64,000 nt of DNA from an uncultured delta proteobacterium (GCA_963737905.1 CAVTUQ010000028.1:182942-246941), one strand, 5' to 3'. Counted from the stretch's first letter, positions 2,383 through 55,418 are shown. The notes: generated from the sequence alone by a model not told the origin. Numbers and translations: made by a program.

Positions 2383-3408
2383 TCAAGACGAAGCTACTTG
2401 AGAGGATCGGAATCCATGGGAGGTCTTCACGGGCGGCAAAGAAACAGCGATATTCGACACCAATTGCGGTCCATGCTTTTTGAGCGAGCGGTGTAGTCGG
2501 TATATTCCCCGCGGCACGGGGCGCCGCTCTTTCCACCACACAAAGCAATCTACATACCCGCGCCCAATACCCTGGAACATGTTATTGTATCGCCGCACCT
2601 GGTACGCCGAAGCGAAGCCATTTAGCGTTGTGCCCAGAAGATGGATGGGGAAATAGGGCATCGGTACGTTATGCCAGGCAAACAAGATATCGTTACGGCG
2701 ACTGTAATAATCTATCCGCCGCAGATCACGTCGTGGCGACTCCATGTGGTGAATGGGATCAGCGTTGCCCAGCCGTGTCACGTAGCCGGCACTCATCATA
2801 CGTAGGCAAAGATCTCCTTCCTCGCCCATTATGAACAAGTGCTCGCGGAAACCTCCAACCTTTAGGAAAATGTCCCGACGGACAGCGTGAGCCGCGCCAA
2901 CAAATGCAAAAGTTACATAGATTCCCTTACTGTCCGGCGCGCGTTGTTGGATCTCGCGATCCTGCCTCACGTTGATGTAGGGTATACCTACTGCCCCAAT
3001 TCGATTATCAGAAAACTCACTTAGTGTTTGCTCAACAGTATTTTTCGAAACAAAAACTGTGTCATCGTCAATGGGAAAAACTACGTTGCACGATGCCAAT
3101 TCAATACCGCGGTTGCGCTGGAACGCTGGCCCGCGACCTGTGCCAAGCCGATGATAGCACACCTGCGGAAACTCTCGGTGAATCAATTCCGCAGTACCAT
3201 CGTTGCTGCCATCATCCATGACGTGGACTTCCACAGAAACGGTCTGTATAAGCACGGATTTTAACAAGTTGCGCAATTCATCCGCCCGATCTCGAGTCGG
3301 AATCACAATTGAGGCGAGCGGCTTGCTGTGCGGTGCCTTCGGCAATTCACCACAACCCCCTGTGAGCGCTTCAACTTCTACTGCCTGAAAGGAGTCGAAC
3401 TCGTTCAC
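2383..3408 (-). CDS. GT2 glycosyltransferase
   Basis: SIVIPTRDR...VMDDGSND...RNRG...PIDDD...GEEGDL motifs; intact 341 aa. Confidence 0.9.
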   Translation of the reverse strand: MNEFDSFQAVEVEALTGGCGELPKAPHSKPLASIVIPTRDRADELRNLLKSVLIQTVSVEVHVMDDGSNDGTAELIHREFPQVCYHRLGTGRGPAFQRNRGIELASCNVVFPIDDDTVFVSKNTVEQTLSEFSDNRIGAVGIPYINVRQDREIQQRAPDSKGIYVTFAFVGAAHAVRRDIFLKVGGFREHLFIMGEEGDLCLRMMSAGYVTRLGNADPIHHMESPRRDLRRIDYYSRRNDILFAWHNVPMPYFPIHLLGTTLNGFASAYQVRRYNNMFQGIGRGYVDCFVWWKERRPVPRGIYRLHRSLKKHGPQLVSNIAVSLPPVKTSHGFRSSQVASS

Positions 3409-4030: not shown

Positions 4031-4738
4031 TCATTTGATTGCTTCGACATAAAGCGATTCTGGAGCTCGGTCCTCGGAATCCAATAGAAGTGAGGGATCG
4101 CCTCCGTTCATAAAACTACGATGTTCTACCGAGGAGAAGCCAGATTTGAGCAGGAAGTACCGGAGGGTCTCGAAGTCGTAGGCATAGAGATGACCGAAGT
4201 CTCTGAAGCACCGGTTGACATGCATTATCGCAGATATTGACTTATCGTCAGGACCCGGAAAAGTGACTCCTTTACCGTTTCGGGACTCTGAATATAGTTT
4301 CAAAAACAGCTCGCCGTCCGGAACGATCAGCCTCAATCTCCCCCTCTGTGAAAGAACACGTTGAAACTCGGGCAGGACGTGCTTCGTAACCAGGTCCAAC
4401 GGCAAGTGTTCCAAGCAGTGTTCTGTGTAGATCCCTTTTAAAGAACTCTCGGAAAACGGCAACCGCCACGTGAGATCCCACACAAGATTCACTCCAGGCT
4501 GCCAAATAAAGTCCAAATTCACATAGCCTTGAACTGGTTTCCTTCCACAACCCGCGTTAAGATATTTTGCATTCCGGATCGCCGACGACCAAATTTGCAA
4601 TGGATTTTGTCTCATACACCATGATAGACACTCAGACGCCATCCTCCCGAACGGCGCCAAAGTTTGCGAACGAGTGATCACAATTCGTTGATCCCAAATG
4701 CGCGATTTCCAATTCATGAAATATGGCACGTGATTCAA
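4031..4738 (-). CDS. SAM-dependent methyltransferase (Methyltransf_11-like)
   Basis: LNAGCG...DLTWRLPF...EHCLEHL...RVLSQRGRLRLIVPD...H.YAYD motifs. Confidence 0.8.
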   Translation of the reverse strand: MNHVPYFMNWKSRIWDQRIVITRSQTLAPFGRMASECLSWCMRQNPLQIWSSAIRNAKYLNAGCGRKPVQGYVNLDFIWQPGVNLVWDLTWRLPFSESSLKGIYTEHCLEHLPLDLVTKHVLPEFQRVLSQRGRLRLIVPDGELFLKLYSESRNGKGVTFPGPDDKSISAIMHVNRCFRDFGHLYAYDFETLRYFLLKSGFSSVEHRSFMNGGDPSLLLDSEDRAPESLYVEAIK

Positions 4739-5752
4739 AGTTTGCCTTTTTGCACCACTTTATTTCGTAGAGGCCTTGAGTTCTTCAGGTGTTCCACACC
4801 CAAACAAATTGTTTCTTTGTGGCCTGCGACCATCGGCGATGGTCTTGCTTCGGACACGTGGAGAGTGGATAGACACGCCAGCAGCGGGAAGCCAACGAGA
4901 TACCTGACGCGGCCCAACGCGGCGTTCCACGCGAACGTCGCTCGATACAATGCCCACGCTTCCCTATGGAGCCTCTGTTGCAAACAACCGAATGTCACCG
5001 GCCGGGTATGGCGGGTTAGAATCCGCCGCCGTTCCGTCGCCCGAGCCGACCCGCCTGGATACGCACTAGATTGTTCCGCTCCAACGTTGACCCACGCGCC
5101 GGCAAGCGTGCGCTGCAGGTTCTTGACCTCGCTTACCTGGTGCTCCCGATAAGCAAAAGTCACGGGGTTAGTGATCTGAACGAAGCCCGGGGCTACGCCC
5201 AATCTCAACGCTAGGTCAGCATCCTCCCCGTTTACATGCTCATCGGTGAAGCCGCCGACCGCCATAAACGTTTCTCGCCGTAGCACGAAGGAGGACACCC
5301 CAAACCAGCGCCACTCTTCCCCGGACGCAAGATAATCAGCGAATTGCTCGGCACGGACCGCTCCTTGACCTAGCTGTCTCCAGCTCGCTCTCATTCCAAA
5401 ACCAATGAGGTTTACCTGCAATAAAGCTCGGGCAATTCTCATTTCTAGCAAATTCCGCATAAACTTGCAGCGTCCACGGAAACCATAAATCATCGCTGTC
5501 AAGAAATGCGAGATACTCCCCTTTGGAGTGCCGCGCACCGAGATTGCGAGCGGCGCCTGGGCCACGATTGGGTTGCGTAAGAACAGTTATCTGGTTTTCC
5601 GACGATTTAAGATAATCTTGTGTTCCGTCCGTCGAACCATCGTCGACAACGATAACTTCATAGTCCTTGAAATCTTGAGCAAATACGGACTTGAGGGTCG
5701 CCTGCACGAGATGCACCCGATTGTATGTTGGTATGATGACTGAAAAGAGCAC
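4735..5752 (-). pseudogene. GT2 glycosyltransferase, frameshifted near 5370
   Basis: N-half (5336-5752: SVIIPTYNR, VVDDGSTD, FLDSDD) and C-half (GGFT...EDADLALRL) are in different frames. Confidence 0.8.
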
Positions 5753-5789: not shown

Positions 5790-6724
5790 TCAAGAGAGCA
5801 TTCGCTTCCACTGTGCGAGTGTTTCCCGCAGCGGAGAATCCCAAAGTCCGATAGAGTATGCGGTAGCGAAATCGTGCCGCGGCGCCACTAGGTACGAAGC
5901 CTGGCAGTGAGTGTTGGATTGTCGCCACGATGTCTGCTGCAAAATTTGGGTCATAAAGCCATGCGATACGAGCAATCTCAAACCGCGCTTGATTAATTGC
6001 CCGTAAGCGATTCTCTGTCATCTCGCTCTGCATACGCAGGAAATCTTCCGCGCGTTGCTCGATTTCCAAGCGCTGGCGATGCACCTCTGATATGTCACTC
6101 TTGCAGAGGGTGTGCTCGCTCCACTGCAGGTAAACTGCCCCGTTACTTGAATTGTAAGCAAACCGTTTCCCAGCCATGAGCAGGCGGAGATACAACTCAT
6201 CTCTTGGCAGCAAGGCTGGTCAGGCTTCCAGCCACCTACGTCAAGAATTGCCTGCTTCCGCCAGAAGGTGCTGTCCGTTTGGGGTAGATACCATCGTGTG
6301 AGAAGAACCCAAGGATCGTGAGGTTCAGGGATCGGCAACAGCTCACGAAGCACCTTGCTCGCTGTCCAGTGTTCCAACGTTACAGGTCCAAAAACAACAT
6401 CCATTTGGGGGTGCAGGGCAAGAAACTCCATCTGTTTTGTGACCTTGTTCGAAAGGAGGTAATCGTCTCATCCAGGTATTGCAGCCATTCACCCCTTGCA
6501 AGTTCGAGAAGGCGATTGCGCGCCGCGTTACCGCCGCGGTTAGGACCCGTTTCCCAGCGGATCCGGTCACCGAAACTTTTGATGACCTCCAGGCTTCCAT
6601 CGGTCGAACCATCGTCAACAACGATGACTTCTTTTTCAGGCCAGGTTTGTGCTAGCGCACTCTCGATTGCCTGAGCTATCCACCGTTCGGCTTTAAAGCA
6701 AGGAATAAGAATTGAAATGAGCAT
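5790..6724 (-). pseudogene. GT2 glycosyltransferase with three single-base indels (~6469, ~6205, ~5825)
   Basis: LISILIPC...VVDDGSTD...LQYLD|ADD, QE|HELY and the final ETLAQWKRMLS* are joined only by 1-nt shifts. Confidence 0.8.
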
Positions 6725-10340: not shown

Positions 10341-11696
10341 TTAGAGGCGAAAACTGTGTTTTGTGACAAAGACGCCCTGTCCCAACGGCGGCAATCGGCC
10401 GGTCCCAAAGAAATCTCCACTTTCAACTTCGAATGTTCCCGCATTCCGAATCCAATCGGCGATCGCTCCATTCACGGTAGCGTACAATGTAAGATGATAG
10501 CGGCCGGGTAAGAGTGGAAAGGCAGGGATTTTCACCGAGATCTCGCGTACCTCAGCTGAAACAAGTAGAAAGTCCCCTTGCGCGATGGCCGTATCTAATA
10601 ACAACACCCGCTGGCCGATGTTATTGTCCACTCCGATGCTAACGTGGAAATTACGGAGATCGCGAGCGTGCGGGTTGCTAAACTTTATCACTAAAGTGCC
10701 CGGTGCACCGCATACAAAGGCACCTAGCGGTTTGGCATCTTTGTTACGCAACTCAATACCTATAAACCGAATTGCACCAGATCCCTGCCGATCCAATCGT
10801 TCCTCGATCTTCATGTCAACTAGGCTGGTGGATTTGTATTGATAATGATGAATCACTTCCGCAATGTCTCCCTGCGAAGCGACTCGACCGCTGGAAAGAT
10901 GCAGCCCCGTGTGACATAGATTCTGCGCTGCTGCCATCTGGTGACTGACAAACAACACTGTGCGACCCCCTCGAGCGACCTCCGACATCTTGCCCAGGCA
11001 TTTCTTTTGAAACTCAGCATCGCCCACAGCCAGGACTTCATCGACGATTAGAATTTCCGGCTCCAGGTGGGCGGCCACTGCAAACGCCAGCCGGACGTAC
11101 ATGCCGCTGGAATATCGCTTGACGGGCGTGTCAATGAATTTCTCCACTCCGGAAAAGTCCACGATCTCGTCGAATTTCTTCTGAACTTCGGCCCTCGTCA
11201 TGCCGAGAATCGCGCCGTTCACGAAAATATTTTCGCGCCCGGTTAATTCCGGATGAAAGCCCGTTCCTACTTCCAGCAAGCTCGCCACCCGGCCACGGAT
11301 ACGCACGCGGCCTTCGGTCGGCTCCGTGATCCGGCTGAGAATCTTGAGCAGAGTGGTTTTGCCGGCGCCGTTGCGCCCGATGATGCCGAGTACCTCGCCC
11401 TGTTTCACCTCAAAATTCACCCCCCGGAGAGCCCAGAACTCCTCGCTAGCCAGAGGTCGGAGGTCAGAGGTCAGAGGTCGCAAACCAGAGGTCGGAGGCC
11501 GGAGGTCAGAGGTCGGAGCACCATTATCTGATCTCTGATGTCTGATCGCTGACGTCTGGCCAGAGAGCCAGCGTAGCGGTGCCGCCGCTTTTTCAGCGAT
11601 GACATCGCGGAGCGCGACATACCGCTGATGATCCTGCTGGTGGCGGATCTTGTATTTCTTGCCGAGGTTTTCGACGCGTATGATGAAGTCAGACAT
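10341..11696 (-). CDS. wzt: Polysaccharide ABC transporter ATP-binding protein with C-terminal Wzt_C domain
   Basis: [31 protein letters not shown]; C-terminal GSGAIRF...PGRYHL domain; carries an in-frame repeat insertion. Confidence 0.92.
11449..11560. repeat. Inverted TCAGAGG-type heptamer hairpin inside wzt (in frame)
   Basis: gccagaggtcggaggtcagaggtcagagg... loop ...tctgatctctgatgtctgatcgctgacgtctggc; encodes [20 protein letters not shown]. Confidence 0.9.
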
Positions 11697-11698
11697 GG

Positions 11699-11745
11699 CC
11701 AGAGGTCAGAAGTCAGACGTCGGAGGTCAGATGTCAGAGATCAGA
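11699..11745. repeat. Heptamer arm type A (TCAGAGG), left arm
   Basis: ccagaggtcagaagtcagacgtcggaggtcagatgtcagagatcaga. Confidence 0.9.
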
Positions 11746-12107
11746 AAAGGGCCGGGGTTCTTGATCATACTACCAAGCATTTTCCCAACCTCTTGAGACA
11801 TCAACGCTAACTCACGATGTTGTTCCAGCGTGAGAAAGCCGCACTCGCGAGCAAAATCCAATGAAGAATCAGTTTCGCTGTTTTCACCGTCGCAGTCGGT
11901 TAACTTGCTAATGAAATGCGCTTCGTATCTTCTCTTTGCCCAGGCCTCTCTTAAATTCAAGCAGACCGACCGCGATGACCGCCGTATTTGACTGGTCAGC
12001 GCAAAACGCTCTTCATCTGGGAATTTCTTGCTAAGTGTGAATATTTTCATCGCCAGATCATAGGCCTTTTTGTAAACTTCCAAGTCTTTGGCTGAATTAA
12101 GTCTCAC
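11727..12107 (-). CDS. Four helix bundle protein (23S rRNA IVS protein / Avd-like family)
   Basis: KDLEVYKKA...FPDEERFALTSQIRRSSRSVCLNLREAWAKRRY...ENSET; GTG start after GGGGAAGG. Confidence 0.9.
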   Translation of the reverse strand: MRLNSAKDLEVYKKAYDLAMKIFTLSKKFPDEERFALTSQIRRSSRSVCLNLREAWAKRRYEAHFISKLTDCDGENSETDSSLDFARECGFLTLEQHRELALMSQEVGKMLGSMIKNPGPFLISDI

Positions 12108-12117
12108 ACCTTCCCCG

Positions 12118-12185
12118 CTGATCTCGGACTTCTGACTGCTGGTCTTCAAATAGCTGACTTCTGACCTCTGATCGCTGACCTCTGG
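12118..12185. repeat. Heptamer arm type A, right (inverted) arm
   Basis: ctgatctcggacttctgac...ctgacttctgacctctgatcgctgacctctgg. Confidence 0.9.
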
Positions 12186-12186
12186 T

Positions 12187-13017
12187 TCAAATGACGTCCG
12201 CGAAACTTCGTTCGACGCGGCGGAAATACCAGATCCCGAAAATACAGAGGCCAGATGTCAGAGCCACAGAGGTCAGAACACTCGGCCACCATAACGGGAC
12301 TTCGCCGCGGAGGAGCGCCCAGCGGAAGCCGTCGATGACACCGACCATTGGGTTGAGGGAATAGAGCAGGCGCCAGTTAGCCGGGATGTTTTCGCTGGTG
12401 AAGCCAACAGGCGAAACATACAAGCCGAATTGAACGATGAATGGAATGACATAGCGGAAATCGCGGTATGTCACGTTGAGCGCGCAGAGCCATAGGCCGG
12501 CGCCAAAGGCGGAACCGAATGCCAGAGCCACAAACAGCGGCAAGGTCACGATCCGCCAGTCGGGCAGAAAGCCGTACCAAACCATCATCGCCGCCATCAG
12601 CCCGAAGGTGATGAGAAAATCCACGAAGCTCGTGATGACGGACCCCGCCGGAACGATCATGCGCGGAAAGTAAACTTTGGAAATCAAGTTCGCATTGCTG
12701 ACGAGACTATTGCTCGACTCGCTCAGCGCGGTCGAGAAAAACTGCCACGGCAGCATCGCGGCAAATACCAGCAGCGGATACGGCACGGAACCGGGCGCTT
12801 CGAGCTTGGCGACTTTGTTAAAAACAATCGTGAAGACAATCATCGTGACGAACGGCCGGATCAGCGCCCAGGCGATGCCGATCACAGTCTGTTTGTAACG
12901 CACGGTCACATCGCGCCAGGCGAGAATGTAGAACAGCTCGCGGTAGCGCCAGAGGTCGCGCCAGTAGTTCCGGAACGAGCGGCCGGGTTCGATTACGAGT
13001 TCGTCGGGCATTGGCAT
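12187..13017 (-). CDS. wzm: Polysaccharide ABC transporter permease
   Basis: DLWRYRELFYILAWRDVTVRYKQT...SKVYFPR...LNPMVGVIDGFRWAL...FADVI. Confidence 0.92.
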   Translation of the reverse strand: MPMPDELVIEPGRSFRNYWRDLWRYRELFYILAWRDVTVRYKQTVIGIAWALIRPFVTMIVFTIVFNKVAKLEAPGSVPYPLLVFAAMLPWQFFSTALSESSNSLVSNANLISKVYFPRMIVPAGSVITSFVDFLITFGLMAAMMVWYGFLPDWRIVTLPLFVALAFGSAFGAGLWLCALNVTYRDFRYVIPFIVQFGLYVSPVGFTSENIPANWRLLYSLNPMVGVIDGFRWALLRGEVPLWWPSVLTSVALTSGLCIFGIWYFRRVERSFADVI

Positions 13018-13020
13018 GCT

Positions 13021-13272
13021 AGCAAAGAGCAAAGGGGTAAGCGGTAAGAGCTAGGACAATTTCGGATTGCGGATTGCGGATTTACCAAACGCTAAGTGCT
13101 AAGGGCGAAGCGGTAAGGGCAAAGAGCTAAGAGCATTTCGGATTTCGAATTGCGAATTTGAAGACTGCAAAGTGCTAAGCGGTAAGGGCTAAGTGTCAAG
13201 AAAACCGGCAAAGAGGTCTAGAATTTCGGAATTCGAATTGCGAATTTGCTGACTTCTGATCTCTGACCTCTG
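13021..13272. repeat. Mixed heptamer block (GCTAAGG/GGTAAGC, TTGCGGA/TTTCGAA, then inverted type A)
   Basis: agcaaagagcaaaggggtaagcggtaagagc...tttcggattgcggattgcgga...ctgacttctgatctctgacctctg. Confidence 0.9.
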
Positions 13273-13287
13273 GGATATTAGACACCC

Positions 13288-13506
13288 CTACTTAACTGCC
13301 TCAACCGGTAGGTTCTCAATACTTACATTAACAATGTCTGCCAAACTGAATCGCTGGCTCACATCCAGAACTTCTATGCCAATTACTTGACCGTTCGCAC
13401 CGAAATCTACCACGACACCGTCTTCAATTTCTTTGGACTTCGCCACATGCGTCTCCGTGAAGTAAACGTAGATGGCGTCGGCCTCTTTGCTATATTCAAT
13501 TTTCAT
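13288..13506 (-). CDS. DUF2283 family protein (predicted antitoxin)
   Basis: MKIEYSKEADAIYVYF...VVVDF...VIGIEVLD. Confidence 0.85.
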   Translation of the reverse strand: MKIEYSKEADAIYVYFTETHVAKSKEIEDGVVVDFGANGQVIGIEVLDVSQRFSLADIVNVSIENLPVEAVK

Positions 13507-13518
13507 TGCCCCTCCAAT

Positions 13519-13563
13519 CTACGGCTTATTGACGACACTGATAATGAGAACTTCCTCACGGAT
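13519..13563 (-). pseudogene. Last ~14 codons of a DUF4258/RelE-like toxin
   Basis: IREEVLIISVVNKP* directly upstream of DUF2283, at the usual partner position; the 5' side is replaced by repeats. Confidence 0.5.
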
Positions 13564-13564
13564 A

Positions 13565-13665
13565 GCATGGAGCGTGGAGCTCGGAGCTAACTCAACCAGA
13601 GATCAGAAGTCGGCGGTCAGATGTCAGTAACTGCAAAGAGAAGAGAAAACTCCATTGCGGATTTG
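13565..13665. repeat. Heptamer block (GCATGGA type, type A, TTGCGGA)
   Basis: gcatggagcgtggagctcggagc...cagagatcagaagtcggcggtcagatgtcag...ttgcggatttg. Confidence 0.85.
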
Positions 13666-13863
13666 CTCGCTCTTTATAAATCGCGCCAAGCTTCATCCTC
13701 TTCCGGTCTAAGCCAGTCTCTGTTCAGTACTCCTTCACTCAAAATGGCCGTCTCCAATCTCTCTTTGGCATCCTGAGTTTTTAAGAAACGAACGAAGTCC
13801 TACCGGAAGATCCTCTATTTCCTGGATGAATAATTTTTTCGGTTGCATCTTCTTTGCGTCCAT
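13666..13863 (-). pseudogene. DUF2281-like antitoxin (internal frameshift) plus the first 8 codons of a PemK/MazF toxin
   Basis: MDAKKMQPKKLFIQEIEDLP / DFVRFLK...LETAILSE...DWLRPEEDEAWRDL*; overlapping TTG gives LARFIKSE, then repeat. Confidence 0.6.
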
Positions 13864-13898
13864 TTTTAAACGCTGCGGGCAAAAAGTGGGCGCTGTCC

Positions 13899-14258
13899 CT
13901 AAATCCACGGGCCAAGAAATTCCAGCTGGTTTTGCATTTCCTCCATTGATTTCGCACCGATTAATTTTAGAAGACCGCGCATCTGGTCTCCTACAGAATA
14001 ACGTTGCTGCGGTGCGAGAATAATGCCCGCGTGTGATTTGCCCTCAGATAGATACTGCGTATGGAGCCGGCAGAAGTCGCCAACGTTAAAACTGTACAAG
14101 ACGCGGCTGTACGTGGTCGCATACTCTAGATGCTCCTCATCTTTACGCTCGATCATGCGTGCTTCTAAAGACGAAACTACATCCACATTGCGAGCCCGCA
14201 AAGCTGTAATCAAGACATGGCGCATGGAATCCTCATCAAAGTACAAACGAATCGTCAT
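13899..14258 (-). CDS. DUF5615 PIN-like toxin (VapC45-like)
   Basis: IRLYFDED...DEEHLEYA...FNVGDF...HAGII. Confidence 0.85.
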   Translation of the reverse strand: MTIRLYFDEDSMRHVLITALRARNVDVVSSLEARMIERKDEEHLEYATTYSRVLYSFNVGDFCRLHTQYLSEGKSHAGIILAPQQRYSVGDQMRGLLKLIGAKSMEEMQNQLEFLGPWI

Positions 14259-14551
14259 GAAGCCCTGCGGCTCAGGAAATGCTCCCGCTCCAGTCTTTCA
14301 ACCTCCGCCTCTTCTGAAGCGATATCGGTTTCGATTTCTGCCCGGTTCGCATGATAGTAAGCCAACGCCGCATAGACTTGCGCTAATGATAAGTGAGGAA
14401 TCTCCAGCGTAATCTCCTCTGGACTTAACCCCAGCTTGTACCACCCTACAATCCGACGCACAGTCACACCTGTACCTGCAATACGTGGGCGTCCCCCACG
14501 AATCTCCGGCGTCCGAACAATCAACGTTCCAATGTCATTTGGTGTTGGCAT
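14255..14551 (-). CDS. DUF433 antitoxin
   Basis: TPEIRGGRPRIAGTGVTV...LSLAQVYAALAYYHAN; stop overlaps the toxin start. Confidence 0.88.
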   Translation of the reverse strand: MPTPNDIGTLIVRTPEIRGGRPRIAGTGVTVRRIVGWYKLGLSPEEITLEIPHLSLAQVYAALAYYHANRAEIETDIASEEAEVERLEREHFLSRRAS

Positions 14552-14619
14552 AGCTTTTACTCCCATAACTTTACTCTCCGACGTACTAGGAATTTTAACA
14601 CGTGTGGCGATCCCAATGC

Positions 14620-14922
14620 CAAAGGGGAAAGAGCGAAGCCAATTGCGGATTTCGGATTGCGAATTTCGAATTTGAAGACTGCTAAGGGCCAAGCGGTAAG
14701 CGCAAAGAGCATGAAAGCATGGAGCAGGGAGCCTGGAGCTAAGAGCAAAATATAACGCTAAGGGCGAAGGGCGAAGAGCATTTCCTATTGCGAATTTCGG
14801 ATTGCGAATTTACCGAACGCAAAGAGCTAAGCGGTAAGCGCAAAGAGCTAAGGGGCAAGAGCAAGACATTTCGAATTGCGAAATGTTTTTCTGACTTCTG
14901 ACGTCTGACCGCCGATCTCTGA
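14620..14922. repeat. Mixed heptamer block ending in an inverted type A arm
   Basis: ttgcggatttcggattgcgaa, gctaagg/gcgtaag, gcatggagcaggga...ctgacttctgacgtctgaccgccgatctctg. Confidence 0.9.
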
Positions 14923-14924
14923 AC

Positions 14925-15179
14925 TTACTCACCACGGGCATATTTTAGATCGTCCTCAAGCTCCTCCGGACCATAGTGGCGCGGGATGCCACGCTCTCCT
15001 AATACCTGACCAAATTCGTATTTCCCTATGCCGGCCAGCTCCCTAGCTTTACCAAACGACAAAAGCCCACGGGCATATAACGAGATTGCCAACTCTTTTA
15101 ACAGTTCCTGTGCCATGCGCTCTTCCGGCAACCGGATAGACTGGAGTACTGAATCCGGGACGTGCAATTGCAAGCCCAT
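14925..15179 (-). CDS. UPF0175 family antitoxin; its partner toxin is reduced to ATG CCC GTG GTG AGT (MPVVS)
   Basis: LKELAISLY...LSFGKARELAG...ELEDDLKYA; overlapping MPVVS is the typical DUF3368 PIN start. Confidence 0.85.
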   Translation of the reverse strand: MGLQLHVPDSVLQSIRLPEERMAQELLKELAISLYARGLLSFGKARELAGIGKYEFGQVLGERGIPRHYGPEELEDDLKYARGE

Positions 15180-15228
15180 CTTTTCTCCCTTTCTTTCTGT
15201 CTTTTTGCCACGGACTGCAAAAGGTTAA

Positions 15229-15432
15229 TTAACCGCCGCTTTCCTTCGGCGAGATTTCCGGGCCGGGTTCGTTTTCTAATCCCCGCACCGCCGCCCGGAA
15301 TGATAATTCTGACCAGTCGATATCTTCCGCTCGAAGCTTCAGTGCCAGATGCTTCACAAATTCTAGCACCTCTCGTCGCAACGGTTCCGGTAACGCCTTG
15401 ACCTCCTTATAGATACGATCGGCCGTTTCCAT
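15229..15432 (-). CDS. DUF2281-like orphan antitoxin
   Basis: VKALPEPLRREVLEFVKHL. Confidence 0.65.
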   Translation of the reverse strand: METADRIYKEVKALPEPLRREVLEFVKHLALKLRAEDIDWSELSFRAAVRGLENEPGPEISPKESGG

Positions 15433-15434
15433 TC

Positions 15435-15689
15435 CTAGCCTCCGCGTCGCTGCTCCCGTACGACGTCAGACATCTGGCCTCGAATCGTGGCTGGGCGCAT
15501 GCGCAACTCTTCAAGTCGAAGCCCAGGTCCCGTGGTTTCATTTAAGAATTTCGCAAGCGGAGTTTCTCGCCGCTTCTTTTCAGTCAGAAATTCGATGAAA
15601 TCCATCACTTCAGCGATCTGCTGTGGCTCGAGGGCGTTAATTCTTCCCAGGATGCTTTTTTCTGTTAAGTCTTTCGATTCGTGTTTCAT
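15435..15689 (-). CDS. DUF2281-like orphan antitoxin
   Basis: INALEPQQIAEVMDFIEFL...MSDVVREQR. Confidence 0.65.
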   Translation of the reverse strand: MKHESKDLTEKSILGRINALEPQQIAEVMDFIEFLTEKKRRETPLAKFLNETTGPGLRLEELRMRPATIRGQMSDVVREQRRGG

Positions 15690-15706
15690 ATTATTGCCTG
15701 AACTCT

Positions 15707-15778
15707 GAAAATGGAAAGCTGAAAGCAGAAAGTTGAAATCTGATTTCTGTTTTCTACTTTTTGTTTTCCCAATTTTCC
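15707..15778. repeat. A/T-rich heptamer hairpin (GAAAGCT/GAAAGTT type)
   Basis: gaaaatggaaagctgaaagcagaaagttgaaatc...atttctgttttctactttttgttttcccaattttc. Confidence 0.75.
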
Positions 15779-15853
15779 TGAATGTATGATTGGCAGGTTT
15801 GACGTAAAGCGAATTCTGCTGGGGACGTTTTCATCCAAGAGAAATGCTTTCAA
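15775..15853 (-). pseudogene. DUF5615 PIN toxin N-terminal stub
   Basis: LKAFLLDENVPSRIRFTSNLPIIHS, then runs into the repeat. Confidence 0.65.
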
Positions 15854-16071
15854 ACCAAATCCTGAAGCCTGAAATGATTTTTCATCAATTCAGCAGAGAA
15901 CCGCAAGCACTCTAGGACATCTTCCTTTGAAAGCGATGGATACTCCTCCAGCACATCCTCTACGGTATCCCCTGCCGCCAAAAACTCCAGAACCGTGCGC
16001 GCCGTTATTCGCGTACCTTCAATCACGGGCTGTCCGTTGCAGATGTCTGGATCGATAACGATTCGTTTCAT
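15850..16071 (-). CDS. DUF433 antitoxin
   Basis: RIVIDPDICNGQPVIEGTRI...LEEYPSL..EDVLECL. Confidence 0.88.
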   Translation of the reverse strand: MKRIVIDPDICNGQPVIEGTRITARTVLEFLAAGDTVEDVLEEYPSLSKEDVLECLRFSAELMKNHFRLQDLV

Positions 16072-16119
16072 AGCGCTATGATAACCGCCGACGCTGCAAA
16101 AACAAGAGCCACCAAGAGC

Positions 16120-16399
16120 CGTCAGCCAGAGATCAGAAGTCAGAAGTCGGAGATCAGAATCTCGCTAAGCGGCAAGCGCTAAGGGCGAAGCGCAGAGATC
16201 GGAATTCAGAAATCAGAGGGTCAGCCAGCTATAAACCAGAGATCAGCGATCAGAGATCAGAAGTCGGCAAATTCGAAATTCGCAATTCGAAATTCGCAAT
16301 CCGCATTTTCTTAGCTCGATGCTCCTCGCTCCCTGCTCCCTGCTCCATGCTCTTACCCCTTACCCCTTACCGCATTGCCCTTTGCTTCGCGCTTCGCGC
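16120..16399. repeat. Mixed heptamer block: forward type A, then inverted B, C and D arms abutting the 16400 stop
   Basis: cagagatcagaagtcagaagtcgg...aattcgaaattcgcaattcg...gctccctgctccctgctccatgctcttaccccttaccccttaccgc. Confidence 0.9.
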
Positions 16400-19300
16400 T
16401 CAGCTCCCCACCAGGCGGCTGCGGAGAGCGGCTAGGGCTTCGCGCGCTTCGCGGTGGGACGGATAGAGCTGGAGAACACGCTCGTATTCCCGGGTCGCAT
16501 CGCGGAGCTCTCCCACGCGAACGTAGGCATTGGCCAGGCGGAGGCGGGTTGTCAGATCGGCGGGCTCCTGCGACAGGATGGCCTGCCACAGCTCGATGGC
16601 GTGGAAAAACTTTTCGTTTTCAAACAGACGCTGGGCGAACCGCGCTTTGTACTCGCCATTGCGCCGGTCAAGCTCGATCGCCTGCTTGTAGGCGTTGAAG
16701 GCGGCTTGCCAGGCGCCGGCGCCGTCCAGGGCTACCGCGAGTTGGAAATACGCTCCTGCGTCTGCTGAGTTCTCTTTCACCAATGCCTCCCATATGGGAA
16801 TGGCCAGGGCAAATTGACCGCGCTTGGTGTAATAGCGGGCCAAAGCGAAGTTGATGCGGTAGGCTCGTGACACGGGCGTCGAGGAGTCAGCTTGGCCAAG
16901 TTCTTTTTGGACGAGCTTGACGAAAAGACGGCGGTGAGGCGGAAGCCCGTCGGAGTCCGGAGCCGGTGCTTTGGCAACGGCAGCCGCTCCATCGCCCGAT
17001 TGTTTGGCCAGCAGGAGCGCGGTCTGAAAATTCACGAGGGCGCCGCTGTTCTCTCCCATCGAGGAAAGTACTTCGGCGATGGCCAGACGAATCTCCGGAT
17101 TCTCCGGGTCTAATCCGATCGTACTCTCCAGCTCCGAGAGCGCCTCGGGGAGTTTTCTAGCCCGGATCAGGGCGTTGGCATAGAGGCGACGGTAAATCGG
17201 TTTTTCCCCGGGTGAGGCGAGTGCGAGCGCCTTCTGATAGCTTTCGTCCGCCTGCAGCCGGAGTCCTTTCTTATCCAGGAGAGTCGCGAGGTAAAGACGA
17301 TCAACCGAAGTGTTGGGGACCAGCGCCTGGAGATCTTCACGTTCGCTAGTCACGGCCAGGGCCCGGTCGAGAAGCTCAGGGAGCAGTTCCGGATTGAGAG
17401 CGACGGCGTTACGCACCGCGGCGAGAGCGGTTGCGCGCAGTGGCGTGGCGGGCGGAGGAAGACGCGCCTGAGAAAAGGCAAACAGCGCAAGCACCCGGTG
17501 GCGGGCCGGATTGGCGGGATCGAGGCTCACGGCGCGGTTGAAGTGAGTCAGGGCAAGGCGGCGCGTTTCGACGGCGGCTTCTGCCTGACCTGCCGACTGG
17601 GCTTGAATGAGGGCGCGGGTTCCGAGCAGCCAGGCCAAGCGCTCGTGCAGCGCGGCCTCATAGGGCGCATCGTTCAGAGCACGCCGATAGTCATGCTCGG
17701 CTTGATCGAGCAGCGCCATAGCCACTTTGGTTCTTACCTCTTGAGTCCTAAGTATCGTAGCGTCGGGGCCGACCGCCCGGTTCCATGCCCGGCTCGCTTG
17801 CTCCTCGAGCTTGCTGGCGCGGAGGCGCAACGCTGCCGGATGTCCCGGAGAAATTGAAATGACCCGTCCAAGCAGCTCCAAAGCTCGGCGTTCGTTCTCG
17901 AGGCGCTGAACTAATGAAGTTGTCATTGTGGGAGCGCTGGCTTGGGATTCCATGAAGGCGACCGCCGACTGAAACCTGTTCTCCGCCAACGGCGGACTCA
18001 CGATAGAAAATACCGCGACGAGAGCCAGCCCGGCAACGATAACGCCGGCCGACACCTGACGAAAACGTCCCGCAATCGGGTAGTGACGTACGGTGACGAG
18101 AGGTTGTGTTATGTTGCGGAAAAAACGGTTGTGGAGAGCGACTGTGGCAATGGCCAAAAGCGTAGCGAGGAGAATTCCATTGGCGGGAATGCGTAAGGAG
18201 AAATCGAGAAAGCTATGGAAGAAAACGGCAACCACTCCGCCTAATGCCCCGATGGCGATGCCAACGTTGTACGGGTCCCGGCGATAAATATCCTCAATGT
18301 CGGCTTGACGATAAAAACAATGACCTCGACCCAAGAGGTGAGCGCCAATGAGATCTCGTCCAACACGCCACAAGGCAACTAAAAGGATCAGGCCTCCGAC
18401 GAGACCGGTTTCAATCCAAAACTGGAGATGGTCGTTATGGGCATGAGTGAAGTGAACGGATCCCGGCGTAAGCTCGATGGGCTGAAAACGAGGGAAGAGA
18501 TCGCCATAACTCCCAAGGCCCGTTCCAAACAGGGGAGCAATGCGTAACATCGGGAGGCTCGCCCAGTACTGGGTGATTCTAGACTGGAGGCCCGTGAAGG
18601 CCAGGCCGAATCGCTCGAGGATAGGGTCGAGACCGATCCAGGCCGCATAGGTCAAGGTCAAGAGGACCAAGGCGGCGAGTAAAAGATGACTGGGACGAGC
18701 CGCCTGGCGGACCAAAAGAATTCCGACCAGCACAACTAAGGATAGAATGAGACTCACCACCCCGGCTCTGGAGAGCGTGAAAACCAGCGCCACGGCCATG
18801 ATGGTGATAGCGAATAACAGAAGCAGCTCTTGCCAGACCCTGTGGGGAAAGCGATGCGGCGTGAATTTTTTAACGGCGACTGCTGACTCCTCATCCGTTA
18901 TCCAGTAGTCGCGCAGGGAGAGAGTCGTCGTCGAAGCCGAATGGCGCCTTCTCTGCCGGCGGAGAAGCTTGGTGGAAAGCAAGAAGCCGAGAGCGAGAGG
19001 AATCAGCATTGCGAGCCAGGCGGCAAAGTGGTCCGGGTTTACAAAGGTCCCGGTCACTCTTCCTGCATAACTGAGCTTTTTCGAGCCGAAAACCCCATAA
19101 CCCCCGCCCAGGTAGTCCAGGAGACCGTAAAAAGCTAAAAGGCTTCCCATGACAAGCAGAAACCGAACGAGGCGATCGATTTGCAACCGCTCGCGAAACT
19201 GATTGACGACCAGGAAGTAAACCGCGGCGTAGGTAAGGAAAAGTCCCACGGCATGGCGAGTGGAGGCGGGCGCCAGGCTACCGGAGAAAAATATCGATGG

Positions 19301-19594
19301 TAATTGCGCTTCGGCGGAAGGCGACAGGGCCCAGTTCCGCAATGCGTTGTTTCCAAGAGCGAGCTGGAGAAACAGGACACCGACAAATAGGAGGAAAGGA
19401 ACGTTCAGTGGGGTGCGAACGATTACCAGCTCTCCTTCAGCGATCATTTTGACAACCCAGGTCAAAACCGCGAAGAGAGCCAGCAGCTCGACAATCGCCA
19501 GCGGCCAGCCCTCCACCGAGCCATAGGGGAGGGGAGCGAACAGCAACAGAGCGTATAGCACGCCGGTGACGGTCAGGTCAGCGATCCGACTCAT
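16400..19594 (-). CDS. O-antigen ligase (Wzy_C/WaaL-like) membrane protein fused to a long TPR region
   Basis: GTFVNPDHFA, TLSRAG, PLFGTGLG, HAHNDHLQ, HSFLDFSLRIPAN; C-terminal ~500 aa of TPR-like helices. Confidence 0.88.
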   Translation of the reverse strand: MSRIADLTVTGVLYALLLFAPLPYGSVEGWPLAIVELLALFAVLTWVVKMIAEGELVIVRTPLNVPFLLFVGVLFLQLALGNNALRNWALSPSAEAQLPSIFFSGSLAPASTRHAVGLFLTYAAVYFLVVNQFRERLQIDRLVRFLLVMGSLLAFYGLLDYLGGGYGVFGSKKLSYAGRVTGTFVNPDHFAAWLAMLIPLALGFLLSTKLLRRQRRRHSASTTTLSLRDYWITDEESAVAVKKFTPHRFPHRVWQELLLLFAITIMAVALVFTLSRAGVVSLILSLVVLVGILLVRQAARPSHLLLAALVLLTLTYAAWIGLDPILERFGLAFTGLQSRITQYWASLPMLRIAPLFGTGLGSYGDLFPRFQPIELTPGSVHFTHAHNDHLQFWIETGLVGGLILLVALWRVGRDLIGAHLLGRGHCFYRQADIEDIYRRDPYNVGIAIGALGGVVAVFFHSFLDFSLRIPANGILLATLLAIATVALHNRFFRNITQPLVTVRHYPIAGRFRQVSAGVIVAGLALVAVFSIVSPPLAENRFQSAVAFMESQASAPTMTTSLVQRLENERRALELLGRVISISPGHPAALRLRASKLEEQASRAWNRAVGPDATILRTQEVRTKVAMALLDQAEHDYRRALNDAPYEAALHERLAWLLGTRALIQAQSAGQAEAAVETRRLALTHFNRAVSLDPANPARHRVLALFAFSQARLPPPATPLRATALAAVRNAVALNPELLPELLDRALAVTSEREDLQALVPNTSVDRLYLATLLDKKGLRLQADESYQKALALASPGEKPIYRRLYANALIRARKLPEALSELESTIGLDPENPEIRLAIAEVLSSMGENSGALVNFQTALLLAKQSGDGAAAVAKAPAPDSDGLPPHRRLFVKLVQKELGQADSSTPVSRAYRINFALARYYTKRGQFALAIPIWEALVKENSADAGAYFQLAVALDGAGAWQAAFNAYKQAIELDRRNGEYKARFAQRLFENEKFFHAIELWQAILSQEPADLTTRLRLANAYVRVGELRDATREYERVLQLYPSHREAREALAALRSRLVGS

Positions 19595-19603
19595 AAAACT
19601 TTA

Positions 19604-19767
19604 AGCAGGGAAGCTTGGAGCATGGAGCCACAGATAGCATGGAGCTTGGAGCAGGGAGCATGGAGCTAAGACACTCAAAGAGCATGGAGCATGGAGCTAA
19701 GACATAACGCCAAAGAAGCAGGGAGCTTAGAGCCACAGATAGCCGGGCTAGCGCTGTAGCAGCGGAG
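19604..19767. repeat. Heptamer arm type C (GCATGGA/GCAGGGA), left arm
   Basis: agcttggagcatggagc...agcatggagcttggagcagggagcatggagc. Confidence 0.9.
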
Positions 19768-20133
19768 CTAGGATTTTAGAGTACGGCGAAAGGCTAAAAG
19801 CATTCTGCTTTCCTCTTCCAGTTCCGATAGTAACTTCCGGACCGTTTCAGACGGTAAATAATTGTCTTTAGACAAAATCATCAGGATATTCGCTACCTCG
19901 AAAACTGACCGCCGGGACATATTCAGGAAGTTTGCGAAATCTGTATCAGATGCACTTCCCGATCCCTCAGCTATATTATTCGTAATACTTAGGGTTGCGC
20001 CACGTAATTGTTCAGCAAATCGGAATAATCTCCTCTCTTCGAGATTTTCCGCCAATCTGAATAGCTCAGCACTAATAGCAGCGCCTCGTTTCCAAATCTC
20101 TAACTCCTGAAATCGAAATTGTGTTTCACTCAT
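19768..20133 (-). CDS. Four helix bundle protein (second copy); may start at ATG 20226, which overlaps the upstream stop
   Basis: FRFQELEIWK...EQLRGATLSITNNIAEGSG...FLNMSRRSVFE. Confidence 0.9.
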   Translation of the reverse strand: MSETQFRFQELEIWKRGAAISAELFRLAENLEERRLFRFAEQLRGATLSITNNIAEGSGSASDTDFANFLNMSRRSVFEVANILMILSKDNYLPSETVRKLLSELEEESRMLLAFRRTLKS

Positions 20134-20149
20134 CTCGTGCGTTCGCTTC

Positions 20150-20220
20150 CGCTCCCTCCGGCTCTCGCTCCTTAGCTCCATGCTCCATGCTTCTTGCTCC
20201 CACGCTCCCTGCTCGCTTAG
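20150..20220. repeat. Heptamer arm type C, right (inverted) arm
   Basis: gctccatgctccatgcttcttgctcccacgctccctgctcgct. Confidence 0.88.
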
Positions 20221-20225
20221 CGGCA

Positions 20226-33679: not shown

Positions 33680-33755
33680 GAGTTCAATTCGTTCAAGTGG
33701 TTCAAATCGTTCAAAACGTTTTGAACGGCTTAAACGGCTTGAGCGTTTTGAACTC
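33680..33755. repeat. 9-mer GTTCAAnnn inverted hairpin
   Basis: gttcaattc gttcaagtg gttcaaatc gttcaaaac | gttttgaac ggcttaaac ggcttgagc gttttgaac. Confidence 0.85.
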
Positions 33756-50507: not shown

Positions 50508-50612
50508 TCGTTCAAGTCGTTCAAATGGTTCAAACCGTTCAAGCCGTTTTTTTCGATTCGGAGAATCGGACGATTTGAACTGCTTGAACGTTTTGAACGG
50601 CTTGAACCATTC
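50508..50612. repeat. 9-mer GTTCAAnnn inverted hairpin between the SBP and permease genes
   Basis: gttcaagtc gttcaaatg gttcaaacc gttcaagcc ... ttgaactgc ttgaacgtt ttgaacggc ttgaacc. Confidence 0.85.
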
Positions 50613-55291: not shown

Positions 55292-55327
55292 GGTTTACCT
55301 CCAGGTTGGTACTTGGGTCTTTTACTT

Positions 55328-55393
55328 TGAACATTGAACCTTGAACCCGGAACACTGGGTCGCAGTTCAATGTTCAAGGTTCAACGTTCAAGG
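55328..55393. repeat. Heptamer TTGAACC inverted hairpin
   Basis: ttgaaca ttgaacc ttgaacc cggaaca | gttcaat gttcaag gttcaac gttcaag. Confidence 0.85.
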
Positions 55394-55418
55394 TAAGATC
55401 ACAAGACTCCACTCGCCG

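Follow-up and report, generated by a model that had tools for sequence, protein, structure and literature searches.

The ligase-wzm junction and its insert

The sequence considered here is a stretch of 64,000 nucleotides (nt), referred to as the window, from an uncultured delta proteobacterium (GCA_963737905.1, CAVTUQ010000028.1:182942-246941; G000:C28:182942-246941 in the notation used below, G000 being the source genome, a 6.7-Mb draft of 46 contigs with 54.5% GC, and C28 the contig of the window). Coordinates are those of the window unless they carry a genome (G) or locus (L) prefix. From approximately 9.5 to 29 kb, all genes lie on the minus strand, and their Pfam matches point to functions in polysaccharide export and assembly. 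Within this operon, an insert (13018-16399) occupies the entire gap between the stop codon of an O-antigen ligase-like gene (16400-16402) and the ATG of the ABC-2 permease gene wzm (13015-13017). In the insert, blocks of small genes are separated by five non-coding clusters (seg1-seg5), which consist of tandem 7-nt arrays. Four types of array unit were distinguished with Tandem Repeats Finder (TRF) and a repeat search:

Type A: CTGACYT on the plus strand; reverse form CAGAGRT
Type B: ATTGCGR / ATTTCGA
Type C: GCTAAGG / GGTAAGC
Type D: GGAGCAT

The insert and its two flanking genes are made up as follows, with the form of each array given in brackets and protein lengths in amino acids (aa):

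12187-13017, minus strand: wzm, ABC-2 permease (Pfam ABC2_membrane, 4.1e-19; an NCBIfam Wzm/RfbD-type match lies below cut-off)
13018-13287: seg1, the wzm-side cluster; arrays C B C B C B A, all (+), with A at 13249-13272
13288-13506, minus strand: DUF2283 gene, 72 aa (PF10049, 1.6e-17)
13507-13665: seg2; D(+) 13561-13590, A(-) 13597-13630 with the unit CGGCGGT, B(+) stub 13653-13665
13899-14258, minus strand: DUF5615 (PIN-like) gene (PF18480, 7.7e-11)
14255-14551, or from 14566, minus strand: second DUF433 gene (PF04255, 1.9e-20; start codon picked from the translation)
14553-14924: seg3, the internal cluster; arrays C B C D C B C B A, all (+), with a B palindrome at 14866-14886 and A at 14888-14925
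14925-15179, minus strand: UPF0175 gene (antitoxin-type), 84 aa (PF03683, 8.9e-26), without a toxin partner
15229-15432, minus strand: gene with a DUF2281-like N-terminus (antitoxin-type), 67 aa (PF10047, 3.4e-4, below the curated cut-off)
15435-15689, minus strand: gene with a DUF2281-like N-terminus (antitoxin-type), 84 aa (PF10047, 7.4e-5, below the curated cut-off)
15690-15849: seg4; local hairpin on a GAAAGCT array at 15714-15743, no Pfam match to the stop-to-stop frame
15850-16071, minus strand: DUF433 gene (antitoxin-type), 73 aa (PF04255, 2.4e-25), with no intact partner downstream
16072-16399: seg5, the ligase-side cluster, 5' in the mRNA; all arrays in (-) form except one C(+): A(-) 16127-16160, C(+) 16163-16193, A(-) 16193-16225, A(-) 16237-16265, B(-) 16266-16308, D(-) 16309-16352, C(-) 16352-16386, GCTTCGC 16384-16400
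16400-19594, minus strand: ligase-like gene, O-antigen ligase-like membrane protein (Pfam Wzy_C, 9e-18, and several C-terminal TPR families)

All seven Pfam-matched cargo open reading frames (ORFs) lie on the minus strand, that of the operon. The second DUF433 gene and the DUF5615 gene overlap by 4 nt on the same strand and, judged by their family matches, are the sole intact toxin-antitoxin-type pair of the insert, the other cargo being single antitoxin-type genes. The DUF2281-like stretch (15229-15689) also gave an NCBIfam VapB match (7e-4, below cut-off), and NCBIfam otherwise added nothing on the cargo. The GC content is 41-54% within the insert, compared with 56-66% in the flanking genes. 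No DNA-level copy of any cargo gene was found elsewhere in the genome, and protein paralogues are at most 52% identical. By sequence inspection, GGAG-type ribosome-binding sites are visible at the cargo genes, while in wzm, wzt and the ligase-like gene the ATG directly follows a pyrimidine-rich arm and no such site is visible. The stretch 13666-13898 has no family match. Two further candidates picked by eye, a frameshifted DUF2281-like gene at 13674-13860 and an N-terminal stub of DUF5615 at 15760-15853, were not confirmed, as neither gave a Pfam match at E <= 1 or any BLASTP similarity. In three loci of the same genome (L025, L026 and L027, on C28 and C27), many genes, among them Asn_synthase, ABC_sub_bind and a TonB receptor, are split into adjacent frames; this fits assembly indel errors and calls for caution with small-ORF calls.

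Period-7 TRF rows, made of head-to-tail 7-nt units, were found all through 13025-16400, and in seg1 a 76-nt segment is duplicated in tandem at a higher order (13025-13179). Each gene block stands between type A arrays that point in opposite directions (13249/13597, 13597/14888 and 14888/16127). The DUF2283 gene is flanked by a near-perfect inverted repeat of 16-17 nt made of type A units, and cofolding of the type A arrays on its two sides (13597-13630 with 13249-13265) predicted a 16-bp helix. A scan of 9-27 kb against Rfam at E <= 1 found no family; the only sub-threshold hits were miRNA-precursor look-alikes on long hairpins.

Complementarity of the arms

A preliminary description of the window had placed a 3.4-kb nested insert with matching inverted arms and co-oriented cargo at this junction. 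The insert, its arms and its gene orientation were found as described, with coordinates and sequences in agreement. The wzm-side arm, AGCAAAGAGCAAAGGGGTAAGCGGTAAGAGC on the plus strand, starts at 13021, 3 nt from the wzm ATG, and the reverse complement of 16349-16386 at the ligase side is AGCAAAGGGCAATGCGGTAAGGGGTAAGGGGTAAGAGC. The two ends are joined by an inverted pair of 35 nt (13022-13056 with 16344-16378, 80% complementary) and by a longer one of 52 nt (13221-13272 with 16244-16295, 87%), which spans the junction between a type B and a type A array. An inner inverted pair of type A arrays with an unusual unit had also been reported, and it extends over 28 nt at 86% (13600-13627 with 14898-14925). 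Both inner arms contain the 12-mer TCGGCGGTCAGA, which occurs six times in the 6.7-Mb genome, two of these occurrences being the inner pair itself, and the unit CGGCGGT of this pair was absent from all 92 units of other type A arrays counted.

Arm pairing was compared with composition-preserving shuffles, a test that had been set beforehand. Local alignment scores were used, with 200 shuffles each of a dinucleotide kind and a 7-nt-block kind, the latter of which keep the unit families. The inverted alignment of seg5 with seg1 scored 34.5 (direct, 16.5), compared with 9.1 +/- 1.2 in dinucleotide shuffles and 12.4 +/- 2.2 in 7-nt-block shuffles, and none of 200 shuffles reached the observed score. 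For seg5 and seg3, the inverted score was 29.5 and the direct score 17.0, and again 0 of 200 shuffles reached the observed value. The pair seg1 and seg3 behaved in the opposite way (direct 43, inverted 13). The same polarity appeared in BLAST comparisons, where seg1 and seg3 matched each other in direct orientation only (74-78% over at most 158 nt) and seg5 matched both of them in inverted orientation only. The arms therefore match beyond what shuffles yield.

Folded singly, seg1, seg2, seg3 and seg5 were no better than shuffles (z = -0.6, +1.2, +0.3 and -0.2, respectively), whereas seg4 alone forms a local hairpin (minimum free energy z = -3.6). Cofolding predicted 118 intermolecular bp between seg5 (16230-16399) and seg1, with helices of up to 18 bp, and 135 between seg5 and seg3, with helices of up to 19 bp; for the inner pair (the type A array of seg2 with 14888-14925), 30 bp were predicted. 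Since seg1 and seg3 are direct copies, each able to pair with seg5, the nesting claimed in the preliminary description is one of two non-crossing readings, alternative or tandem stems being the other possible one, while the insert, the arms and the inner pair themselves are real.

Heptamer arrays in the operon and across the genome

The heptamer arrays are a genome-wide feature. The TRF search returned 661 period-7, 290 period-8 and 606 period-9 rows, and after merging, 717 period-7 arrays remained, 95 of these arrays on contig C28; 188 canonical period-7 units were counted. Within the window, type A-D arrays occupy most spacers from 11.4 to 26.6 kb. Arrays were particularly frequent around genes for the "23S rRNA intervening-sequence protein" (23S_rRNA_IVP, here IVP), a four-helix-bundle protein (PF05635, TIGR02436) with 11 genes in the genome. 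Arrays lie within 350 nt on both sides of 8 of these genes and on one side of the other 3; among 20,000 random 300-nt intervals, the corresponding proportions were 0.7% and 13.9%. The units vary by cassette (GTTCAAAAC, GCAGTGA, GGCTTAT, CAGAGGT, AGCATGG, ATTTCGG and ATTTTAG). When each left flank was compared with the 11 right flanks, its own right flank was the best inverted partner in 6 of 11 cases and the second best in 5, the second places being due mostly to paralogous cassettes. By comparison, arrays lie on both sides of only 1 of the 13 DUF433 genes of the genome, on one side of 5 and on neither side of 7.

Besides the genes listed above, the operon includes, on the minus strand, a CHASE2 cyclase, a FecR-like protein, a beta-barrel porin, Poly_export/SLBB, Wzz/GNVR, a tyrosine-kinase-type ATPase, wzt and a methyltransferase-like gene, and the insert is flanked within it by two IVP cassettes:

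10341-11696, minus strand: wzt, Wzt ATPase
11700-12184, minus strand: IVP cassette in the wzm-wzt spacer; gene 11727-12149 (PF05635, 2.9e-30; TIGR02436), arms CAGAGGT-type 11700-11745 and CTGACCT-type 12154-12184
19605-20225, minus strand: second IVP cassette, in the ATPase-ligase spacer (PF05635, 3e-26); type D arms 19612-19740 and 20167-20214

Thus, the arms are not private to the insert: the same array types fill the spacers of the operon, and such arrays bracket IVP genes genome-wide. An arm similar to that of the insert was also found at another junction. Over 118 nt, part of seg5 (16269-16383) shares 83% identity with G000:C28:166994-167110, both lying in the same orientation. The latter forms the gene-proximal arm of a spacer of 1.47 kb, 30 kb from the insert, that separates a GT1 glycosyltransferase gene from a Bac_transf gene. 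This sister spacer (G000:C28:165620-167115; L025 5620-7115) has mosaic heptamer arms that accompany an opposite-strand HTH_17 (excisionase-type) gene and an IVP gene. In this genome, then, it is the composite arm that is repeated, with variable content between the arms.

Several further arrays were noted. An exception to the intergenic placement is an in-frame type A heptamer hairpin in wzt (11443-11558, in the N-terminal part of the ATPase), where approximately 30-45 residues of PTSDLRP-like repeats are added after the first conserved strand and ahead of the EDFWAL motif; the hairpin is also present in genome G015 (L021 6399-6560) and absent from four other Wzt sequences aligned. Elsewhere in the window (33682-33753, 50508-50611 and 55327-55394), inverted 9-nt (GTTCAAATC / TTGAACGGC) and 7-nt (TTGAACC / GTTCAAC) arrays separate metabolic and transporter genes, and their units differ from types A-D and are among the commonest in the genome. 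A second toxin-antitoxin-type island (G000:C7:470400-476500, L039) carries DUF5615, DUF433, DUF2283 and PIN genes; its spacers hold other repeat families, namely 9-nt GATTGGAAC-type and 7-nt TTGAACY arrays, and a segment of approximately 300 nt is duplicated in it (936-1290 and 5020-5310).

The junction in relatives

Matches to wzm were found in 22 of 61 genomes, a tally that includes G000 as well as G006 and G012, both flagged unpublished and used for no other result; two genomes of the same genus gave no wzm match. In the best genome match, G015 (61% identical), a GHMP-kinase gene lies 15 nt upstream of wzm, and the wzm-wzt spacer has CAGAGGT/CTGACCT arrays without an IVP gene; there (L021 6730-7040), the arms enclose approximately 310 nt with two copies of a CCCCGCAGCTTGCTGCGGG-type hairpin motif. 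A wzm fragment of G014 is 88% identical over 88 residues and is preceded by an unrelated 889-aa gene, from which it is separated by a 137-nt spacer containing degenerate type D units only.

A metagenome scan provided 80 loci with wzm relatives at 61-91% identity from a broad set of organisms. The closest relative (L041, 91%) has a Wzy_C/TPR gene followed by an IVP gene that is split by a GIY-YIG gene; this cargo sits between type D arrays, and the wzm ATG lies within the last of them. An IVP gene is also located directly upstream of wzm in L042, L043, L050, L066, L097, L098 and L106, and a split IVP::GIY-YIG in L115. Other contents of the upstream junction are a ParE-type pair in L049, which lies beside, not within, a local hairpin with 59-nt heptamer arms, and PIN and DUF29 genes in a 4.1-kb insert of L113. 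The junction between wzm and the next large gene holds IVP in L060 and L115, IVP::GIY-YIG in L097 and L098, a ParE-like gene in L067 and DUF433 in L076. Thus, the cargo at the junction, whose comparison among relatives had been proposed with the preliminary description, is not invariant, and consists of IVP, split IVP, ParE-type or PIN genes or of nothing.

Longer spacers were more often accompanied by arrays. Of the 80 loci, 48 allowed a judgment of the upstream junction: the spacer measured up to 250 nt in 28 of them, 1 of which had period-7 arrays, and was longer in 20, of which 9 had such arrays. At the downstream junction, judged in 54 loci (34 short and 20 long), the values were 4 of 34 and 9 of 20, although some "occupied" calls may reflect a missing or broken neighboring gene.

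Two observations from these loci deserve separate mention. The IVP gene is split at approximately profile position 47 by an 83-85-aa GIY-YIG gene in L041 (2621-3297), L097 (3622-4363; also L098) and L115 (877-1613). The pattern has the look of a small nuclease gene with IVP genes as its target, and it recurs at three or four independent metagenome loci next to wzm. In the 4.1-kb insert of L113, which has other ORFs besides PIN and DUF29, the genes are set apart not by heptamer arrays but by three copies of a perfect palindrome of 20-21 nt, GGGCAGGTTTCAAACCTGCCC (3223-3243, 4277-4296 and 5917-5937).

Homologues of the cargo genes were examined for period 7-9 arrays within 700 nt. Those of DUF2283 (75-88% identical) occur in Nitrospinota, Nitrospirota, anammox Planctomycetota, Desulfobacterota-type and Dehalococcoidales genomes, a phylum spread that points to horizontal transfer; arrays flanked them on both sides at 1 of 33 loci and on one side or both at 8 of 33. 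Homologues of DUF5615 (51-66% identical) come from Chloroflexota, Pirellulales, Ignavibacteriota, cyanobacteria and others, with arrays on both sides at 1 of 18 loci and on at least one side at 4 of 18. The cargo genes, therefore, mostly do not travel with the arms.

Transcription and excision

Terminator-like sites in the insert (16, vs 10.9 +/- 3.5 in shuffles) and promoter-like sites (3, vs 4.1 +/- 2.0) show no excess, which makes read-through transcription to wzm plausible. An RNase III gene (rnc) is present in the genome. RNase III is the enzyme that cuts the IVP-bearing intervening sequences found in 23S rRNA, so that its processing of the arms would be a reasonable model by analogy.

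An excised or circular form of the insert was not seen when contigs of X1, X2, X5 and X6, of which only short pieces aligned, were compared with the region. Most contig "joints" have sides of 21-38 letters within arrays and other letters between the sides; they are most likely gene-less hairpins at other loci or in other organisms and were not counted as excision. In X1, a joint from 13648 to 14839 (side 34, depth 2.3, with 16 further letters separating the sides) might represent a form without the DUF433/DUF5615 block, but its support is too weak to count. A single X1 contig of 1302 nt matches 16356-16531 with one difference and is then unlike the window, and its loose end has no match in G000 when up to 3 mismatches are allowed. 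The contig is a hint of a strain that carries other cargo, the break lying inside the outer arm.

Origin of the insert

The best explanation of these findings is that foreign small genes accreted inside a resident split hairpin of heptamer arms, to which we assign a probability of roughly 0.6. According to this scenario, the ligase-wzm junction would at first have been the site of a hairpin-type repeat or of an IVP cassette like that of L041 and its kin, with halves that were mosaics of A-D arrays like the arms of the neighboring IVP cassettes. Horizontally acquired toxin-antitoxin-type genes may then have entered the hairpin loop in several events, each of which may have added or duplicated pieces of the arms, leaving the seg1/seg3 copies, the extra type A arrays and the 76-nt duplication. 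The shared arrays could have served as patches of homology and as a recombination substrate through which cargo was gained and lost. Within the mRNA, the arms could pair into long imperfect duplexes, which RNase III might cut as it does in 23S rRNA intervening sequences. The insert is probably selfish or neutral baggage, and it may be tolerated because its genes are co-oriented with the operon and no terminator is evident, so that transcription could reach wzm. The successive insertions into existing arms that the preliminary description had proposed are likely, since the resident arm family, the 83%-identical sister arm and the array-poor cargo homologues all fit such insertion; the order of the events, on the other hand, is an inference, because a whole junction from a close strain was not recovered.

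That missing junction is one of several points that weigh against this explanation. The ligase-like gene had no match at E <= 1e-40 in 40 relatives. In RNAduplex calculations, seg5 with seg1 gave -190 kcal/mol and a flipped control a near-equal -174 kcal/mol; the control is strong partly because type B units are self-complementary, and since a near-equal control makes whole-cluster energies hard to interpret, the alignment scores against two kinds of shuffle were used instead. Among 128 inverted array pairs with co-directional flanking ORFs, the mismatches that would become G·U numbered 92 for the sense strand and 97 for the antisense strand (p = 0.77, with array pairs that are not independent and strands assigned crudely), which gives no sign of selection on RNA pairing and no support for the looping-out from the transcript that the preliminary description had put forward. 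Finally, inverted array pairs outnumber direct ones genome-wide only at distances under 100 nt (50 vs 7), and the two are about equal at 300-6000 nt.

The last two points also speak for an unlikely alternative, in which a small toxin-antitoxin island arrived by an unrelated route, and microsatellite arrays similar to STRR, the intergenic heptanucleotide repeats of heterocystous cyanobacteria, would arise by slippage wherever this genome has non-coding DNA. The complementarity of the arms would then be a by-product of a small number of unit families, without a role. Arrays are indeed found throughout the genome and belong to few families, and L049 offers a ParE-type pair that stands beside a local heptamer hairpin. 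Such a coincidence does not readily account for the polarized orientation and mirrored order of the arms, with seg1 and seg3 matching in direct and seg5 in inverted orientation only, for an observed score above that of the 7-nt-block shuffles in 200 of 200 trials, or for a 52-nt match at 87% that crosses an array junction. It is also at odds with the composite arm, 83% identical, at the sister junction, and with seg1, seg2, seg3 and seg5, which have no local fold beyond shuffles and so differ from the usual short-range hairpins.

It is more doubtful that each gene block moved in together with its own inverted arms, as a self-contained composite mobile cassette resembling a 23S rRNA intervening sequence, and that such units were stacked one inside another. 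The opposite type A arrays around every gene block and the rare unit common to both inner arms would suit this origin, and IVP genes, with arrays on both sides in 8 of 11 cases, do resemble packages of gene plus arms. However, homologues of the cargo are rarely armed on both sides (1 of 33 and 1 of 18 loci), a second genomic copy of the cargo genes is absent, and most DUF433 genes of the genome are unarmed. Moreover, the arm types are those of the host operon and not of the cargo, and the outer arms have no flanking direct repeat (flanks CATGCT and TCGCGC).

A more far-reaching proposal, which we regard as improbable to a similar degree, treats the heptamer arrays as sequence-independent, structure-defined docking arms. 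They would form a recombinase-free counterpart of the integron that, through recombination inside the arrays, could capture small foreign genes of any kind, such as IVP, antitoxin, HTH and GIY-YIG genes, and their pairing in the mRNA and cutting by RNase III would insulate the host cistrons. The wzm message would then be almost leaderless after cutting, because the arm ends 3 nt before the ATG and no Shine-Dalgarno sequence is visible.

A repeat-driven chimeric join in a metagenome-assembled genome is very improbable: the draft does contain many frame-broken genes, and no public contig covers host gene, arm and cargo together, but the arrays are just 20-50 nt long, X2 records 10, 12 and 14 match pieces of cargo or arm with 0 differences (record 14 covering the arrays at 16228-16378), and the same architecture occurs at other junctions and in independent metagenome contigs.

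Two further readings were rejected. An integron with attC sites does not fit, as seg1, seg2, seg3 and seg5 have no local attC-like hairpin and no recombinase was found among the scanned ORFs of the window; nor does a transposon or miniature inverted-repeat transposable element, as CATGCT and TCGCGC at the two ends do not form a direct repeat, no transposase was found among the same ORFs and the arm sequence varies by cassette. The scan for recombinases and transposases covered window ORFs of at least 150 aa, plus shorter ORFs within 9-29 kb.

Comparison with known systems

For decades, heptamer repeats have been known to lie between bacterial genes, and to our knowledge they have no accepted role. 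The present locus, together with its IVP neighbors and its relatives, suggests heptamer repeats as the boundaries of a hot spot in an essential-looking operon, in which differing small selfish genes may come and go without breaking the operon. If the arms are sites of recombination or RNA processing, this would explain how the operon tolerates such cargo and would link mRNA spacers to rRNA intervening sequences. We regard the locus as a well-documented instance and not as a new principle. In the literature covered, which included few subscription journals, no account was found of operon spacers in which paired heptamer arrays enclose genes.

One likeness is to STRR and similar heptamer repeats, which resemble the arrays of the insert in having several unit families per genome. 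Intergenic heptanucleotide repeats have also been described in Xanthomonas (GGGAATC, with 70-75 convergent pairs; PMC4692102) and in Beggiatoaceae (TAACTGA; PMC4679880). Such repeats are likewise tandem 7-nt arrays that are overwhelmingly intergenic, lie near the ends of ORFs, differ in length among relatives and in some cases face each other in convergent pairs. The insert differs in that its arms, 150-370 nt long, are mosaics of several unit families, and in that the halves stand 1.2-3 kb apart with genes between them; enclosed genes are not mentioned in the available portions of PMC4692102 and PMC4679880.

The ORF-bearing intervening sequences of 23S rRNA (S23p/IVP; Coxiella and Leptospira) have a 28-bp terminal stem, inside which RNase III cuts, and a mobile origin has been discussed for them (PMC4990558). 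They share with the insert a layout in which inverted terminal arms frame a small gene and the host unit is transcribed and non-disposable, and their gene family is common to the two neighboring cassettes of the operon. Unlike them, the insert lies in the spacer of an mRNA operon, has arms of tandem heptamers and carries toxin-antitoxin-type cargo, with none of its seven ORFs matching PF05635.

The arms also recall REP, BIME and REPIN elements, which are abundant, intergenic and mosaic and have hairpin potential inside operons; the arms differ from these in consisting of tandem heptamers of many unit families and in enclosing genes. Integron cassette arrays, with their attC sites and the integrase IntI, often carry toxin-antitoxin cassettes. 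Like the insert, they are composed of small, promoter-less, co-oriented foreign genes with structured repeats between them, and in the insert this likeness extends to seg1 and seg3, direct copies of a repeat that follow gene blocks.

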